Source: Naegleria gruberi
Lineage: Eukaryota
Assembly (NCBI GenBank): GCA_000004985.1
Contig: GG738859.1
DNA length: 64,000 nt
Direction: 5' to 3' (one strand)
This document shows positions 54,022 through 62,807 of this stretch, one piece after another. The notes below the pieces were generated by a model, which saw only the letters and a list, made by a program, of their open reading frames with translations, was not told where the DNA came from and made no database searches. Every line of letters begins with the position of its first letter. Position 1 is the first letter of the stretch. The translations under genes and the position numbers were made by a program.

Positions 54022-57000
54022 TTAAATTGTAGGAGGGTTTACATTTTCGAAAGATTCAAATGCTACAATTTCATCCATAACAAGCCAATAAAATGTAATA
54101 CCAAAGAAATCTCTCATTTTCCTCTTCTTATTGTCATTTCTTACAGCAATATAGAAAACTGTGGCAACTGCTTGTCTTGGAAATACTTTACTCTCATAGT
54201 CGTCCAATACTTCAACTGCCTTGTCATGATAATATTTGGTGAAATGTTTAACAATTTCACTAATTTCCAATTTTAGTTTGTAATGGTTCTTTCCACATCT
54301 GACCTCTAATTCCTTTGTATTGAAAAATCCTCCTAATAATTCAACTTCTGATGAGACAAAGTATTGTTGCATGAGCTTTCTCAAATCTGATTTGTACTCT
54401 TCATAAATTTCTAATGCTGCATTGTAGGCGTGCATTATATTTTCATCAAAATAATCCCAGTCGTCATCTATGAGCATTGTTTTGAGATTAGGAAGTTTGA
54501 TAAAGACAGCATCTAAAATTTCAAGATGAGGATCCAGTTTTATCTCTTGAATAGAATCTAGAATGCCAAGCTTTTTTCCGTGAACTGTTTTTTCAAAAAA
54601 GACAGCCTTATCATAAATACTTCCAATAACATCTTCAGAGTGATATGTTTTCTTACCAAAAACTCTTGGCATATAGTGAGGTCTACTGTTGGAGAAAAGT
54701 TCAGTAGGAAGTGGTTTTCTGACACCAGTTTTGGCATAGTCAACTTGATAACTGTGGTGTTTGGCCAATTTCAAACAAGGTTCACTTCTTAGCCCATCCC
54801 CCTCCTTATCGTAATGTTCCAAATGCAAGAATGCAACAACACCAAGGTTGTCATTAATAATGTACTCTGTTAAGAATTCTCTAATAACTCGATAGTCACA
54901 TCCGTCGTGCTTTTCTTCAGGTGGAAGTCCCTCATAATTCATTGGGGGATATTCCTCAAAATTAACTAGGAGTGGATCCCAAAATACTTGGAAAAAGTCG
55001 CCGTCATAGTCGCCTCCACTCATTTTGTTAGCTGCAGGTCTATTGCCTTTTTGGCTGAATACAATTACATCTCTAAGGTGTGATAATTTGCTAATCTTTT
55101 CTGGATCTGTAACAGCTTTGAACTTTCTAATGTCACCAGGGTGAAGGCATGGTGATCTTGTAATTGCTACAGTTCCACTCAAAGTGCCACCATTCACAAA
55201 ACAATTGTCATCATAAAGATCAGAGTCAGAGTTTTCCAATTCAGAAAGTTGGATAAATACTTCATCCTCTTCCAACACTCCATAAAAGTCCACAACTCCC
55301 ATCAATAAAAGAGCCTTGTCAAGAATAATTCTACCATTCTTGAGATCATTCAATCTGTTTCTGATCAAACTATCCTTGATATTGCAAAATACTGGTTCTA
55401 TTTGGTAAAAGAATTTAATGTCCTCTCCCGATTGCACAACTTTAGAAAAGTCGTATTGAGAATCCAAATAGTTGAGAGAGGCCACTTTCTTCATATTCTT
55501 TCCAACGATATTATCTTGTGATTTTCTCAACACTCTCCTCATATACTTCTTATCATTAAATAACTTTTTGATTTCTTCAAGATCTCTATCGAGTAGTTGT
55601 AAAAATACCGAATCTGATACCTTATTGGAACTCAATAAAGCAATCAATTGTCTATTCAAACTAGCAAATCTATTTCTTTTCGAGTAAGTAATCAGTTCAA
55701 ACTCGCTACTGGAGGAATCTATGAACTTTTCCTGACTCTTAGATAGGAGAAGATCCAAATCTGAATATAAATGAATATCAGGATCTACAACAACAACTCC
55801 CTTCAACCCTCCCATACGAAATTGGAATGCTGATGGTATGTATTCTTTGCCAGCAAATGAGATTTGGAATTTCTTGGTTAATTCTACAGCAAATTCTAGT
55901 GATATTCTTCCTACACCATCTGTAAACACATAATTGTTTCTGGTAATGTCTGGAATAATTTCATACTCTTTTGAGATGCCTTCATACGTGTGTGAAAAGC
56001 ATTGTCCAATTCTTGCTGCATACCTTGCTTTAACTTTGATATGAGAAAAATTACCAAGAGAATTGATAATATTTCTTGGGGTGAAACTTCCATTCGAATA
56101 AACGAACCAAGAACTGGAACATTGTTAGAAATGTTTGAAATAATATAAGACGTACCTGTGGGCTCTAAGTTGACTGGTAGAATAAGCAAGCATTTCATAT
56201 TTTCTGTTAAAAACTAGAAGGCCCTTCTTTAGCACAATCTCAATTCTCTCATGCAAGTTTGTAAATTTTTCAGCACTAAGTTTATGAAGATCTTCATCGC
56301 AGAATGTGATTCTCAAAAAGTGATCTTCATTCTTTTCCTTATATTTTCTCAAAACTCTATTACCACCCTCAACTGATTTGTCAAAAAATCTCCAACCTGT
56401 TGGTGTAATCATTACTTTACGAATATTGAAAAAGTTTGTATCAAAATCAATGAATGCCGTGTCATTATGTTTCAATTTTTGATCAGCTAACCGTTGATTG
56501 AAATGTTCTAGGAATTCAGATGGATAGATGTTTTTCTCATTCAATACTTCTCTCATGGCACGGTCAACCATTTCATAGTCATGATCTTTGTTAATATATC
56601 TTGTAATAGTGTCCACTATTGCTTCCAATCTTTCTCTATTGTGTAGAATTCCTGGTATCTTAGTATCTAAGCAAAACAGCAAATATACTGTATTGAAGGA
56701 AAAATTATGAAACAATGGAAAGTCCAAGCTTTCATCATATTGGAATGTATCGATTTGCTTCCTTTTGATTTTCTTATCTCTCATTACCAAAGGATATGGA
56801 TAATTATGACCCTTCAGTAGGGAACTCACATCAGATGAAACAGTGAGCAGTAGAGATCTACCCCATCTGAAATTGTTCAACCACATGGATGATATGCTAT
56901 CTTGTTGTGAATAGTCAGGAGCTGCCATTCTTGTACGAAATGCTTCATCAGGCCTCTTACGGTAGATGAATGGCACATTTCTAAGTTCAATGGCTAATTC

Positions 57001-58068
57001 TGTGACACCAACAATAACACGTCTCACATTCTCTCGCTTAATGTCCATCCAATAGTCATGATTAGAGTTGAATGTTGCTTGTAATTTAATATCACCAGTT
57101 GCAGACCAGTATACTAATGATACCTTTCTCTCCAATAATCCATGTCCTACTTGTTCCTTATTTACACATAAAAATGTTTCATGCTTATTGTCATCAAAAT
57201 TACCAATCTCCATATTTATCCAGTTTAACTCCACTGACCCATACTCCACTAAATCATTGGGTTTTTCAGATTTGGTTGTTGATTTTGATGATGTTACACT
57301 TTCTTCAATTATTACAGGTGGTCCAATAATCTGCACAGGTTGTTTCTTCTTTTCTTTGGCCTTATCCTTCTTTTGAGTTGGTTCCTTCTTTTCCTTTGGT
57401 TTTAGACTGGGAAAGTTATTTTCATTATCAAGGGCCACAGGTTTTGGTGGCTGATTGACAATTACAGGTTGATGAATATTGGTAACTGGTGGATTGTGAA
57501 TTCTATCATTATCATTCCTCCTATAATTGTTATTTCCTCCTTTATAATTATTATTGTCTCCTCTTTGCTCTTTATATTCTCGATTATTATTATTTCCTGA
57601 ATATTCCCTATGCTTACTCGATTTATCATTGTTATCATTGAAATTATTATTATTATTGTAATTATTATTTCCTCTATATTCTCTATTGTTGTTGCCATTA
57701 CGCGAGTATCTATCATTATTATCATTGTAATTCTTCTGATAATTATTATTGTAATTGTAATTATTATTTTGATAATAGCGATTAGGAGGAGGCTTCTTGC
57801 TATTATCATAACTGCTACCATTACTCGGATTGATTAAATCACCAGTAGTATTATTAATTATATAATTTCTCGCTTTGTTTTGTTGATAAAAAGCCTTTTT
57901 CTGAGATGATTCGGAAACATGTTCCTCTGAATCATTAATTATTAATTCCTCTTCATTATGATGAGAACTACTACTACTACTACTACTTGCTCCACCATTC
58001 CTAGTACTACTTGCTCCTCTATAAATCTGATAATGTTGCTGATTTGTCTTTTGATTGGGATTAAACAT
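54022..58068 (-). CDS. eukaryotic cellular RNA-dependent RNA polymerase (RDR family, RNAi pathway); 2 exons, ~1334 aa
   Basis: On the minus strand the exons are 56156-58068 and 54022-56113, with a 42-nt intron (GTACGT donor, ccag acceptor) and consistent phase. The catalytic signature SGGDYDGDFFQVFWD is the DxDGD motif of the RDR double-psi barrel. An extended RdRP core follows. The first ~200 aa are an N/Y/R-rich low-complexity region. Confidence 0.9.
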
Positions 58069-58665: not shown

Positions 58666-60390
58666 ATGTCACTCACTGTTTATTCGAAACCATCATCATT
58701 ATTCGAAATTAATGAAATACTTAATACAGTTTCCTCCCTTTATGCTTCATCTTTAAATTCTACAACTAACACCTCAATGATACCATGTGATTTGCGGATT
58801 TTTGAAATGTCATACCTCTCAACAAAACCCAACATGACAGCACAAGATTATAACAATATTTGCCCCGACACAATATTCGTTCCAATAGTTGCATGGATTG
58901 AAATTGCAATCTTCATTCCCTTATTTCTTCTCTCATTTATTGGAATTATTTGGAAGAGAAAAAGTGGACACATACAGGCGAGGAATCTCTCTTGTCTAAT
59001 TCCCATACTCATTGCTTCCTTTTTCTCAACCATCTTCCCATCATTGAGGTGGGCCTTAGGGAGAGATCTCTTTCCGTGTGGTGTTTTAATTTTTATATTA
59101 TTTCACACGTCGTGGGCAATGATTCTACCGCCAATACTTAATATGTTTTCCTTTATTGTGAGACATGCCTTGTACAGGTTATTGACTGGGAATTTTAAGG
59201 ATTTGAGTGATCAGTTGGGAATGGATAGGAATTCATTAAAATTAGATGTTAAAAAACTTTCGAATACGATGGAGGAAATGCAACACGCAGCCGAGTCGGT
59301 CATGCAAAATTCGACATCGATAGGATCTGTCAGCACTTTGCAATCAAATTCCGATCTAACAGCCACAAAAAGCAAATCAAAAAGTGCTGATTTAGTGAGT
59401 ACTATTGGCTCTTTGGATTTTACTCCAAATGAAGTGAGATTATTCAAATTTTACAAGTTTTTATTAAGTGCCAAATTTCGAGTACTGACCTATTTGATTT
59501 GTTTTGTGATTCACATATCGTTGTGGTTGATTTTGGGCTTAATTCAATTGACCAATCCTGAGTCTGCCTCTCCATATTACAATACTGGAATTAACAATTT
59601 TTTTGGAGCTTGTACGATGCATTCAGGAACAGTGGCAGTTTTCTGTGGATTATTTGCATCTTACTTGGCTGCTCTGGTTGTCCTGCTCTTGATTTCCTTC
59701 TTCTTGGAGAAGGATACATGGGGAATCAAAATAGAAACTTCAGTAATGAGCATTCTCCTCCTCATTGCTGTCATTAATTATCTTGTCTGTCCATACATTA
59801 CCATTATAAGAACTTATACTGATTATTTCTTTCCGTATGGTCAATCGATGGTTATGTATTCCATCATTCAACTCTTTGTTTTTGTAACCATTCCACTGTG
59901 CAGATCCATAAAAGGAGATGGGATATTTCCAGAGGAAATTGCTTCCACAATGTTCGAAAGAATTCTCCTCAATAAGGAAACTTTCAAAATAGCCCTCGAT
60001 TTCAGCAGGAGATCCTACTGTTCAGAACCAGTCCTATGTTTCGACAATATTGAAAATTATAAGAAAGCTCGAAGAAAATCAAACAAGCTCAAAATTGCAC
60101 TTCACATTCTCAATACCCATCTGAAGAAAGGTGCTCCACTCGAGTTGAATATTGACAAGATTGAGGAACGATTCAAATCACTCCAAGAGAACATTTCCAA
60201 TCAGGATGAGAAGAAAATTGATGAAGAAGTTGGATTGTTGAGAATTCACTGTTTACAAGACATGTCTGAAATGATGTATCGATTGATTTTGAGTGATAAG
60301 GTAGTTAAAGAGGTGGCAATGATGAATTCTGGTAAAATTCCAGTGGATTCACTAAATTCACCAGTTTCGTCTGAACTTTCTAATGTTTAA
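58666..60390 (+). CDS. seven-transmembrane protein with C-terminal RGS (regulator of G-protein signalling) domain (AtRGS1-type architecture), 574 aa
   Basis: ATG at 58666. There are seven hydrophobic helices between residues ~70 and 400. The C-terminal RGS box is FKIALDFSRRSYCSEPVLCFDNIENYKK...ILNTHLKKGAPLELNIDKIEERF...MMYRLILSDKV (compare RGS4 [25 protein letters not shown]...EVNLD...DSYRRFLKS). Confidence 0.7.
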   Translation: MSLTVYSKPSSLFEINEILNTVSSLYASSLNSTTNTSMIPCDLRIFEMSYLSTKPNMTAQDYNNICPDTIFVPIVAWIEIAIFIPLFLLSFIGIIWKRKSGHIQARNLSCLIPILIASFFSTIFPSLRWALGRDLFPCGVLIFILFHTSWAMILPPILNMFSFIVRHALYRLLTGNFKDLSDQLGMDRNSLKLDVKKLSNTMEEMQHAAESVMQNSTSIGSVSTLQSNSDLTATKSKSKSADLVSTIGSLDFTPNEVRLFKFYKFLLSAKFRVLTYLICFVIHISLWLILGLIQLTNPESASPYYNTGINNFFGACTMHSGTVAVFCGLFASYLAALVVLLLISFFLEKDTWGIKIETSVMSILLLIAVINYLVCPYITIIRTYTDYFFPYGQSMVMYSIIQLFVFVTIPLCRSIKGDGIFPEEIASTMFERILLNKETFKIALDFSRRSYCSEPVLCFDNIENYKKARRKSNKLKIALHILNTHLKKGAPLELNIDKIEERFKSLQENISNQDEKKIDEEVGLLRIHCLQDMSEMMYRLILSDKVVKEVAMMNSGKIPVDSLNSPVSSELSNV

Positions 60391-60407
60391 TTTTGAGATT
60401 GAACAAA

Positions 60408-62807
60408 ATGTCACAAAGTGCCAACTTAAGAAAGTGTACCAGAAATGTTTCAATTTGTGGTGAATACGCGAGCGGAAAATCGACTCTCGCCCAATTACTA
60501 ATCAACCATGATTTAACAAACAATGTAAAAACACAAATTCTATTCGAAAGTACTTTCCAATCACAATTATATTCTACAAGTAAAAAATTAAATTCCTCTG
60601 ATCATCAAGAATATTCCATCAATTTATTGGATTGTCCTGGTAGGTTAGAATTAGTCTCCCAAGTCAGCACAAGTTTCAGATTGACCGATAGTTGCATAAT
60701 GTTATTCGATTCCACTTCAAAACTGGGGAAATATACAGAATTAATTACGAGACAAATTTCACAAGAGAATATTCCTCTTCTTATAATGTTAAACAAATTG
60801 GACGACTTGTTGATGGATTGCGATTTTAGTTTGGAAGAAATTTACAAATTATTATTGAAAATTATTGATTCGGTCAACTTGATGATTAGTACAAGTTGTA
60901 GTGATGTGAGTGGTGGTAAATTGAGTTTGGAAAATGTGGTGTTTGGATCTGTCAAGCAGGGATGGGCATTTACATTGAAAGATTTTGCCAAGTTTTATTC
61001 GAAACAATTAGGAATGAATCAAGAAGAATTGGTAGAGAAATTGTGGGGTGATTATTATTATGACACAGAAAATGGCCAATGGATGAATCAATCGAATGAA
61101 AATGTATTAGAAAGGGGGTTCTGTCAATTTATTTTGAAACCTATTCGAAATGTCTTATTGGCTTGTGGCGATTCACATTTTCATCAAGTAGAAGAATTGC
61201 TAAATCCTTTTGGAGTAACTCTTTCAGAATATGATGACCATTCAAAGAAAGAATTAACCAATTCAATCATCATGCAGAAATGGTTGCCAGCCAGTGATTC
61301 AATCCATGACTTGATTTGTAATAGTTTACCTTCTCCTGAAATGGCTCAACAATACAGAGCTCAAAATCTCTATTCTGGTTTACTTTCCGATAAATTTGGG
61401 TCAGCAATCAAGAATTGTGATCCAAATGGTCCTTTAATGATTCACATTTCTTCAAACAACATTGTAAATGGAAAGATTTATGCAGTGGGTAGAATATTTT
61501 CAGGATCTTTGAAATCAGACACATTAATTAGAATATTTTATTCAAAGGATGTATTTGAGGAAAAAGTGCTTGGTGGAATGGTAAATTTCAATGGTTTACT
61601 TGTTGAACCAATTGAAGAGGCAAGTTGTGAATTCAATTCGATTGTTGGACTGGTTGGAATTGAAAAGTATCTAACAAACAAGGGAGCTACCATTACTGAG
61701 AGCACAGAATTGGAAGCTAAATCATTTACTAGTGTGAATTCTCTCAATTTTCCAAAGATTAATATTTATGTGGAACCTAAAAAACAAGTTAATCTTCCTA
61801 AAATCATCAAAGGAATGGAACTGATTGCCAAATGTGATTCTTCAATTTCCCTATCTTTGGATGAAGAAACTGGAGAGAAAATACTAACAATATTGACTGA
61901 ATCTCATTTGAATTCAGTGCTAGATCAATTCCAACAACTATATCCAAATATTGAACTTGAATTGTCTGAACCAATATTAAAATATCAAGAAACTGTAACA
62001 ACTGAATCAGCCAATATAACGTTTGTGAAAACTCCAAACAAGCACAATAGATTATGGCTCACAGCTAAAACTCTCCAAGAAGAGATATCCAATTATATTG
62101 AATCAGGAAAATTACCAGAAGATTCTACGGAAAGAGCCAGAGTATTGAACGAGAGGTTTGGATGGGATCCTCTGGATGCCAGAAAGATTTGGTCATTCGG
62201 TAGAGATACTACTAGAAATATTGGAGCCAATGCAAATGCATTCGTCGATCAGACAAAAGGAGTTCAATACTTGAATGAGATTAGGGATTCGATTTGTCTT
62301 GGTTTCCATATTGCTGCACAAGAAGGTCCTTTATGCAATGAATTAATGCGAGGTGTTCGTTTCAATCTCAAAGATGTGACCCTGCATTGTGATGCTCTTC
62401 GTAGATCAACTGGGCAAATATCATCAGTAGCAAAGAGAGGTTGTTACGCCTCCATGTTAGATGCACAACCAACCCTAATGGAACCAACATTATTAATGGA
62501 ATTTAAATGTGGACAATCTCAATTGGGAACTCTCTTTTCAATTCTCAATGAAAGGAGAGGAATTGTGTTGGAACAGGAAAATTTCAAATCTTCAACCTTT
62601 GGAAAAGCTTATTTACCAGTTTCGGAATCGTTCGGAGTTGTGGACCATTTGAATAAGCTAAATATTTCTTCTCAATTCATTTTCGATCATTGGAAACCAA
62701 TTACTGCAAACTCAACTCGATTATTAGAAATTGTGAATAGAATTCGTCTCAGAAAAGGACTGCCCGAACAAGTTCCCACCTACACCGAACTAGTAGATAA
62801 ATTATAA
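60408..62807 (+). CDS. divergent elongation factor 2 (EF-2/EF-G superfamily) paralog with altered GTPase and diphthamide sites, 799 aa
   Basis: ATG at 60408 (the track start at 60393 is a TTG). It is collinear with eEF2 over the full length, for example KTPNKHNRLWLTAK, ARKIWSFG, TKGVQYLNEIRDSICLGFHIAAQEGPLCNELMRGVRFNLKDVTLHCDALRRSTGQ, KAYLPVSESFGV, FDHW and the C-terminal YTELVDKL. The G1 motif is GEYASGKST (eEF2 AHVDHGKST). The G3 motif is DCPGR (eEF2 DSPGH). The G4 motif is NKLD. Confidence 0.85.
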   Translation: MSQSANLRKCTRNVSICGEYASGKSTLAQLLINHDLTNNVKTQILFESTFQSQLYSTSKKLNSSDHQEYSINLLDCPGRLELVSQVSTSFRLTDSCIMLFDSTSKLGKYTELITRQISQENIPLLIMLNKLDDLLMDCDFSLEEIYKLLLKIIDSVNLMISTSCSDVSGGKLSLENVVFGSVKQGWAFTLKDFAKFYSKQLGMNQEELVEKLWGDYYYDTENGQWMNQSNENVLERGFCQFILKPIRNVLLACGDSHFHQVEELLNPFGVTLSEYDDHSKKELTNSIIMQKWLPASDSIHDLICNSLPSPEMAQQYRAQNLYSGLLSDKFGSAIKNCDPNGPLMIHISSNNIVNGKIYAVGRIFSGSLKSDTLIRIFYSKDVFEEKVLGGMVNFNGLLVEPIEEASCEFNSIVGLVGIEKYLTNKGATITESTELEAKSFTSVNSLNFPKINIYVEPKKQVNLPKIIKGMELIAKCDSSISLSLDEETGEKILTILTESHLNSVLDQFQQLYPNIELELSEPILKYQETVTTESANITFVKTPNKHNRLWLTAKTLQEEISNYIESGKLPEDSTERARVLNERFGWDPLDARKIWSFGRDTTRNIGANANAFVDQTKGVQYLNEIRDSICLGFHIAAQEGPLCNELMRGVRFNLKDVTLHCDALRRSTGQISSVAKRGCYASMLDAQPTLMEPTLLMEFKCGQSQLGTLFSILNERRGIVLEQENFKSSTFGKAYLPVSESFGVVDHLNKLNISSQFIFDHWKPITANSTRLLEIVNRIRLRKGLPEQVPTYTELVDKL

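Follow-up and report, generated by a model that had tools for sequence, protein, structure and literature searches.

The fold of eukaryotic elongation factor 2 (eEF2) has been put to use in roles other than translocation. Snu114/EFTUD2 and EFL1/Ria1 are both derived from eEF2 and both keep its switch II histidine, but Snu114 has gained an N-terminal extension (acidic, about 100 residues) and EFL1 a large insertion. Ski7, a paralog within the eEF1A/Hbs1 family, has an inactive GTPase centre and serves as an exosome adaptor; bacterial EF-G II likewise keeps the translational-GTPase fold around catalytic machinery that has diverged. Snu114 and EFL1 are older than the last eukaryotic common ancestor, and EFGII still translocates, slowly (PMC4342817). 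In archaea, aEF-2p is a lineage-specific extra EF-2 without diphthamide-related residues; its role on the ribosome as a non-translocase is only predicted, its domain IV loop residues are unconserved, and it is tied to loss of dph genes (Narrowe et al. 2018, PMC6143161). Here we describe a set of eEF2 paralogs restricted to Naegleria gruberi, one of which, EF2L-A, is encoded on the plus strand of a 64,000-nucleotide stretch of contig GG738859.1 (assembly GCA_000004985.1), referred to below as the window. The source strain is N. gruberi NEG-M, and the GC content of the window (33%) is consistent with this species. A first-pass annotation of the window had called the gene product an eEF2 paralog that is unlikely to act as a translocase, and had suggested, from the short spacer, that it is either transcribed as a dicistron with the gene immediately upstream or coupled to it in function. 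eEF2 is usually taken to be a single-copy, near-invariant marker, yet N. gruberi keeps three copies under selection in which the catalytic histidine has become an arginine.

Sequence comparisons support the placement of EF2L-A in the eEF2 subfamily by descent, rather than with Snu114 or EFL1. In phmmer searches of PDB, EF2L-A scored 516 bits against eEF2 (its best match, 1e-153), compared to 304 bits against Snu114, 278 against archaeal EF-2 (aEF2), 215 against EFL1 and 93 against EF-G, in agreement with the paralogy first proposed. The EFL1-level match, to 5anb, was fragmented into four stretches (215 bits), and EF2L-A has 799 amino acids (aa) where EFL1 has more than 1000. Residue 10 of EF2L-A aligns to residue 128 of human Snu114, and EF2L-A therefore has no N-terminal extension. 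Thus, EF2L-A resembles Snu114 and EFL1 in having an eEF2-derived fold in what is probably a role other than translocation, but it is without the added segments found in either. It resembles aEF-2p in being a lineage-specific extra factor without the diphthamide histidine; unlike aEF-2p, however, the EF2L proteins keep most domain IV motifs, retain the diphthamide histidine in two of the three copies and have an independent, eukaryotic origin. Ski7 (EF1 subfamily) and EF-G II (bacterial) are like EF2L in their degenerate or diverged catalytic machinery, but belong to another subfamily or another domain of life and show no sign of common descent with it.

With canonical eEF2 (yeast EFT1/2, PDB 1N0U), EF2L-A has in common the five-domain fold with a G'' insertion, the C-terminal RKRKGL motif, the GKS, DxxG and NKxD motifs, and a domain IV loop of the SPNKHNR type. 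It differs in that both key histidines are arginines, the P-loop is changed, switch I is shortened and several loops are deleted. Identity to more than 100 canonical eEF2s is 34-39% for EF2L-A, and the three N. gruberi paralogs taken together compare to canonical eEF2s at 37-40%, whereas two distant canonical eEF2s, those of C. elegans and Galdieria, share 66% identity. This level of divergence, together with the absence of both histidines, supports the earlier statement that EF2L-A is unlikely to be a translocase, and its sequence makes it very unlikely to be the one that serves the cell.

Pfam matches to EF2L-A (GTP_EFTU, EFG_III, EFG_IV, EFG_C and a weak domain 2) correspond to the five-domain EF2 architecture. 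Motifs were read from EF2L-A aligned with eEF2 chains of solved structure and with canonical eEF2s, and the motif calls made previously (GKST, DxxG and NKxD kept; DCPGR, HCDALRRSTGQ and GEYASGKST altered) were borne out by these alignments; all positions given here are on the plus strand of the window. The G1, G3 and G4 patterns are all present (G18..GKS25, D75..G78 and N129KLD132). The P-loop, GEYASGKST (residues 18-26; 60459-60485), keeps the GxxxxGK[ST] pattern, but the His and Asp of the eEF2 sequence AHVDHGKST are gone; this Asp is a monovalent-cation ligand of translational GTPases (PMC4342817). The switch I/effector region (residues 34-65 by alignment; 60507-60602) is unalignable and about 16 residues shorter than in eEF2, with the RFTDTR segment among those missing. 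In switch II, eEF2 has DSPGH and EF2L-A has DCPGR (residues 75-79; 60630-60644), in which the catalytic histidine is replaced by Arg79 (codon AGG). The G4 motif, NKLD, is at residues 129-132 (60792-60803). In domain IV, the loop TPNKHNR (SPNKHNR in eEF2; residues 542-548; 62031-62051) is conserved, and the diphthamide loop reads HCDALRRSTGQ (residues 660-670; 62385-62417) where eEF2 has HADAIHRGGGQ. The histidine that would become diphthamide is Arg665, whose codon (CGT at 62400-62402) is one transition away from CAT, and the loop around it is altered as well (GG to ST and IP to SS). Relative to eEF2, domain II has also lost a loop of 6 residues, and short loops are missing from the C-terminal region. 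The description of the protein as full-length is thus correct for its 799 aa and five domains, but not for switch I, domain II and the C-terminal loops, where residues have been deleted.

An AlphaFold2 model of EF2L-A reproduced all EF2 domains, with a mean pLDDT (predicted local distance difference test) of 78.7 and a pTM (predicted template modelling score) of 0.64; pLDDT was below 50 across the switch I residues 34-65. The top PDB matches of the model in Foldseek were eEF2 chains (E 4e-72), many of them on 80S ribosomes, and in several of the matched entries (9rvu, 6mtd and 8y0w) eEF2 sits on dormant or hibernating 80S ribosomes, a precedent for the role proposed below. To describe how the divergence is distributed, retention of canonical residues was scored for copy A over 302 columns that are near-invariant in 29 canonical eEF2s. 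Domains IV (34 of 45), V (23 of 32) and G'' (23 of 31) retained about 75% of these residues, compared to about 40% for domains G (42 of 110), II (16 of 41) and III (17 of 43).

EF2L-A is one of three paralogs in N. gruberi: A (NAEGRDRAFT_32442), B (EFC36859.1) and C (EFC49643.1, a partial model). Paralog B is 64% and paralog C 51% identical to A, and the three genes are dispersed, on contigs of 530, 197 and 942 kb for A, B and C, respectively. Only three relatives rise above the canonical eEF2 background. In a word-indexed search of 5.8 billion protein clusters (15 billion proteins), run with a single sequence and with a profile, scores dropped from 1399 to 702 bits, and when 1.84 billion 50% representatives were searched exhaustively with HMMER, one cluster scored 1472 bits and the next match 631. 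The next matches beyond the family are canonical eEF2s. A protein from a metagenome contig (P0002, contig L001) was considered as an ortholog from another species and was rejected, since its 99% identity to EFC36859.1 of N. gruberi shows it to be paralog B. Because of this, the substitution rates given below compare paralogs, and the synteny argument is reduced to the statement that adjacency to the upstream gene is not a feature of the family. In the annotated proteome of N. lovaniensis, which was covered by the search (the upstream neighbor of EF2L-A matches a protein there), no EF2L member was found. Such a distribution is consistent with the family having originated in the N. gruberi lineage, or with its loss elsewhere.

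The switch II arginine is present in all three paralogs (DCPGR, codon AGG, in A; DCIGR, codon AGA, in B; DCPGR in C). Since AGG and AGA are at least two steps from CAY, the replacement of the histidine is old. The diphthamide histidine, by contrast, was lost in copy A only and is retained in B (YSDAIHRGTGQ) and C (NSDSIHRGAGQ); its loss is therefore not a lineage-wide change but a matter of divergence between paralogs of one genome, in line with the first-pass annotation. That two paralogs keep this residue, and that all three are so distant from canonical eEF2s, speaks indirectly against the canonical copy of the species having the same changes. The P-loop Asp and His are gone in A and B (GEPSSGKSS in B), and switch I is shortened in both; the public model of C does not include the P-loop region. 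Derived residues that are identical in A, B and C occur in the DCPGRLE stretch around switch II and also in domains II and III, a pattern that speaks for a new constraint acting on all three and against drift. Between A and B, nonsynonymous divergence (dN) was 0.22-0.23 and synonymous divergence (dS) 0.90-1.34, for a dN/dS ratio of 0.16-0.25 that stayed below 0.4 in each of six segments and was lowest in domain IV. The gene is therefore under purifying selection and not decaying, and the intact 799-codon open reading frame (ORF) at 33% GC agrees with this.

The paralogy itself has already been catalogued, since Atkinson (2015, PMC4342817) lists divergent N. gruberi eEF2 duplicates in a passing mention. 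That survey records nine eEF2-class entries for N. gruberi, called highly divergent, as well as 12 eEF1A-class entries, one 'aEF1A' and two Snu114 (PMC4342817, Additional file 2). The duplication of translational GTPases in N. gruberi is thus one that extends well past EF2L-A. Beyond Atkinson 2015 and the archaeal study of Narrowe 2018, we found in the searchable literature no description of the residue-level picture, of the three-member subfamily or of its function.

The reading we favor, with moderate confidence, is that EF2L-A is a hydrolysis-deficient derivative of eEF2 that still docks on ribosomes and acts there as an occupant or regulator rather than as a motor. The three paralogs would have arisen from eEF2 within the N. 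gruberi lineage and would then have evolved fast. EF2L-A keeps the five-domain fold, the nucleotide-binding motifs and those surfaces of domains IV and V with which eEF2 contacts the ribosome, and it has lost the features on which ribosome-activated GTP hydrolysis by eEF2 depends (i.e., the catalytic histidine, the P-loop Asp and His, and a full switch I). Replacement of the switch II histidine in EF-Tu and EF-G greatly slows ribosome-stimulated GTP hydrolysis. The comparisons above show the paralogy, the restriction to N. gruberi, the motif changes, the fold and the purifying selection; nucleotide binding, loss of hydrolysis, ribosome binding and a biological role are inferred for EF2L-A. The protein may dock in an eEF2-like manner in the ribosomal factor site and the A site, with or without nucleotide, and once docked would be expected not to complete a GTPase-driven translocation cycle. 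It could then act as a non-hydrolysing ribosome occupant or regulator, for example in stress, encystment or differentiation. If EF2L does bind ribosomes without GTP hydrolysis, it would represent a natural trapped-factor regulator of translation, and it would also provide a natural experiment on the contributions of the switch II histidine and of diphthamide.

Several observations weigh against this reading. Apparent Snu114 sequences (not identified by name) keep TPNKxNK-like and HRGGGQ-like domain IV loops, and because Snu114, which is not known to act on ribosomes, thus seems to keep these loops too, domain IV conservation is no proof of ribosome binding. An arginine in place of the catalytic histidine need not abolish chemistry and could instead support some unusual form of it. 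The Mg-coordinating threonine of switch I (RxITIKST in canonical eEF2) aligns to Leu45 in one alignment and to Thr49 in another. Paralog C has NKLE in place of NKLD, and guanine-nucleotide binding may therefore not be required family-wide. Lastly, a canonical N. gruberi eEF2 was not among the 120 matches listed in either cluster search.

Four other explanations were weighed, and all of them are less likely. EF2L-A may have an off-ribosome role similar to that of Snu114, as a nucleotide-gated or structural scaffold in another ribonucleoprotein or cytoskeletal complex. Snu114 and EFL1 are precedents for this, being ancient eEF2 paralogs with new roles (PMC4342817), and the domain IV loops kept in apparent Snu114 sequences are compatible with it, as is, more weakly, the somewhat better superposition of the model on Snu114 (template modelling, or TM, score 0.70-0.74) than on eEF2 (0.52-0.64). 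However, EF2L-A has no N-terminal extension or insertion such as mediates the new contacts of Snu114 or EFL1, its sequence similarity is clearly highest to eEF2, and the ribosome-facing domains IV and V are the best conserved, so that we consider an off-ribosome role unlikely. It is also quite unlikely that EF2L-A is a functionless or decaying duplicate, left over from the burst of eEF2 and eEF1A duplication in N. gruberi. The highly divergent entries listed by Atkinson (9 eEF2-class and 12 eEF1A-class; PMC4342817) are in keeping with such a burst, only 38% of near-invariant G-domain residues are kept, and copy A has several changes in its diphthamide loop, where the histidine-to-arginine replacement is a single transition. 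A relic would not, however, be expected to have an intact ORF of 799 codons in an AT-rich genome, a dN/dS of 0.16-0.25 between A and B that is low in all six segments, 72-76% of the invariant residues of domains IV and V, and identical derived residues fixed in all three paralogs. A further alternative holds that EF2L-A is a working translocase isoform, for example a diphthamide-free eEF2 that resists the ADP-ribosylating toxins of prey bacteria, with the arginine replacing the charge of the histidine or of diphthamide. Amoebae graze on toxin-producing bacteria, the diphthamide site that such toxins target is replaced by a positively charged residue, and the domain IV loop (SPNKHNR in eEF2) is kept. 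We nevertheless regard this as very improbable, as EF2L-A has lost the catalytic histidine, the Asp of the P-loop and a large part of switch I, and loss of the switch II histidine slows GTP hydrolysis in EF-Tu and EF-G. Furthermore, toxin resistance cannot explain the family, because B and C keep the diphthamide histidine yet have the same degenerate GTPase centre.

The fourth alternative concerns the upstream gene (58666-60390, plus strand; 574 aa), which encodes a seven-transmembrane (7TM) protein with an RGS (regulator of G protein signaling) domain and which we treat as a neighbor only. Seven hydrophobic segments can be recognized in the protein, and Pfam places the RGS domain at residues 430-518 (E 2e-5). 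Its ORF ends with TAA at 60388-60390, and the spacer to the EF2L-A start codon occupies 60391-60407 on the plus strand, which confirms the ORF position and the 17 nucleotides (nt) reported at the outset. A gap map, crude in that it was drawn from ORFs of at least 150 aa within the window, gave head-to-tail gaps of 80-850 nt elsewhere, while convergent gaps of 16-33 nt were common. Set against this range, the 17-nt head-to-tail gap is a real outlier, in line with the initial impression of an unusually short spacer (others had been put at 70 nt or more). Judging from this geometry, 17 nt is too small for a 3' end plus a promoter, and the two transcription units would therefore overlap or read through. 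From here it is a short step to supposing that EF2L-A and the RGS gene belong together, either as a functional unit in which the RGS protein is a GTPase-activating protein (GAP) or regulator of EF2L-A, or as a dicistronic one in which one mRNA carries both; the spacer is the shortest head-to-tail one in the window, the next being 80 nt, and transcript overlap is almost forced. The remaining evidence does not favor such a unit. RGS domains act on heterotrimeric G-alpha subunits, whose switch regions they recognize, and not on translational GTPases; Pfam returned no G-alpha family on EF2L-A, only EF-Tu/EF-G family domains, and EF2L-A is without the catalytic residue that a GAP would assist. Paralog B (on L001) has an unrelated upstream neighbor, divergent on the opposite strand and 158 nt away; neither flank of L001 resembles the window, and the upstream regions of A and B have no significant similarity. 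The RGS protein has only three database relatives. Its homologs in N. lovaniensis (L002, 10001-14855) and on an environmental contig (L003, 2036-4684) are directly followed by a second 7TM-RGS gene in tandem, in the position that the EF2-like gene has in N. gruberi, and tblastn detected no EF2-like sequence in these loci (22 kb of L002 and 4.7 kb of L003). Consequently, the RGS-EF2L pair recurs at none of L001, L002 and L003, and true orthologous loci of EF2L-A appear nonexistent. The two ORFs are in different frames with no plausible joining intron, and a fusion by splicing was rejected, as the only stop-spanning GT..AG would be a 13-nt intron. The proposed functional coupling of an RGS protein to a GTPase is thus unsupported, and we hold an RGS-EF2L unit to be highly improbable. 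Most likely, the 17-nt spacing reflects a dispersed duplicate packed close to its neighbor in a compact genome and not a functional partnership, and the adjacency that suggested a signaling module should be read with caution, as it is without comparative support. Neither target-site duplications nor flanking repeats that would mark an insertion were found near EF2L-A, only short chance matches.

Copies of eEF2 that have lost one or both histidines are found in other organisms as well. We inspected 149 other best 50%-cluster representatives, which include eEF2s, apparent Snu114s and further relatives and in which the motif columns alone were checked; about 35 were without the switch II histidine and about 35 without the diphthamide histidine. 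Named examples come from Tieghemostelium lacteum, Dictyostelium discoideum, Entamoeba marina, Pelomyxa schiedti, Adineta vaga, Dactylellina haptotyla, Aspergillus lucknowensis and Cunninghamella. These copies are of eEF2 length, are annotated plainly as 'elongation factor 2', and lack one or both histidines (e.g., DIPRN and AIRRGGGQ in Tieghemostelium, and DTPGR in Dactylellina), although some may be gene-model artefacts. They are 37-51% identical to canonical eEF2 and 31-37% identical to EF2L-A, and since canonical eEF2 is in every case the nearer of the two, they appear to have arisen independently. The survey suggests that degenerate copies of eEF2 are a common occurrence in protists and fungi. 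This has consequences for annotation and for the choice of phylogenomic markers, as well as for conclusions on diphthamide biology that are drawn from sequence. A more speculative extension, which we offer as a rather unlikely possibility, is that the EF2L trio and the independent degenerate copies together make up a recurrent, undescribed class of regulators, hydrolysis-dead mimics of eEF2 that park in the factor site of 80S ribosomes and silence or protect them (e.g., in cysts or during the amoeba-to-flagellate switch) and, secondarily, that a bicistronic or read-through mRNA does in fact span the 17-nt spacer, in a eukaryote that is not known to use trans-splicing.

Two further eEF2-like proteins of 802 aa, P0103 and P0090, are encoded on contigs over 1 Mb in ENA assemblies. 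They were picked by ranking canonical matches on the rare residues they have in common with the EF2L paralogs (24 and 22, respectively, of 122 informative columns, where 5-8 is typical). As candidates for the canonical N. gruberi eEF2 both were rejected, being degenerate themselves (DTPGD in P0090 and SIRRGTGQ in P0103). Their likeness to the N. gruberi paralogs could be due to relatedness, convergence or compositional bias.

The EF2L-A coding sequence runs from an ATG at 60408 to a TAA ending at 62807 on the plus strand (799 aa plus stop). The same reading frame opens at 60393 with a TTG, an alternative to the ATG; the ATG at 60408 is taken as the real start because Met1 of eEF2 aligns to it, as does that of paralog B, and because it has an A-rich context. 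This context (caaaATG) is also found before other genes of the window. The best database match of the ORF (P0001) is N. gruberi NAEGRDRAFT_32442 (EFC46271.1, XP_002679015.1, UniProt D2VAA0), to which it is identical apart from an annotated intron that removes residues 127-172 from the public model. This intron of XP_002679015.1 (753 aa) is placed at 60788-60925 on the plus strand, is 138 nt long and bounded by GT..AG, and is both in frame and free of stop codons. The segment encodes the NKLD motif and a helix that can be aligned to eEF2, and it is kept in paralogs B and C. For these reasons the intron is likely spurious; 60788-60925 is probably coding sequence and the public model probably in error.

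The public model of the RGS protein (P0296; 415 aa) also differs from the ORF in the window. It starts at Met160 and has the same stop, so that the first three transmembrane segments (58666-59143) are left out. The long 7TM form is supported by a homolog (P0297) that aligns from residue 11.

An A-run (AAAAAAATG) precedes most gene starts in the window. Many stop codons lead directly into TAAATAAA or a TAATAAA-like sequence, and stop codons and poly(A) signals may overlap in the window. The stop of the RGS gene (TAATTTTGAG) is without such a TAATAAA-like motif.

Other genes of the window, scanned with Pfam, include COPA, UTP15, saccharopine dehydrogenase, a SET-domain protein, a kinase, a metallophosphoesterase and an RNA-dependent RNA polymerase (RdRP), and look like unrelated housekeeping genes. 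The RdRP gene is split over two ORFs on the minus strand (54022-58068). The ORF at 56125-58068 has an Asn-rich N-terminal region and matches positions 1-91 of the Pfam RdRP family, and the ORF at 54022-55815 matches positions 196-581. The two are separated by a gap of 309 nt, roughly what the missing portion of the domain would take up, which suggests an intron or a disruption of the reading frame.

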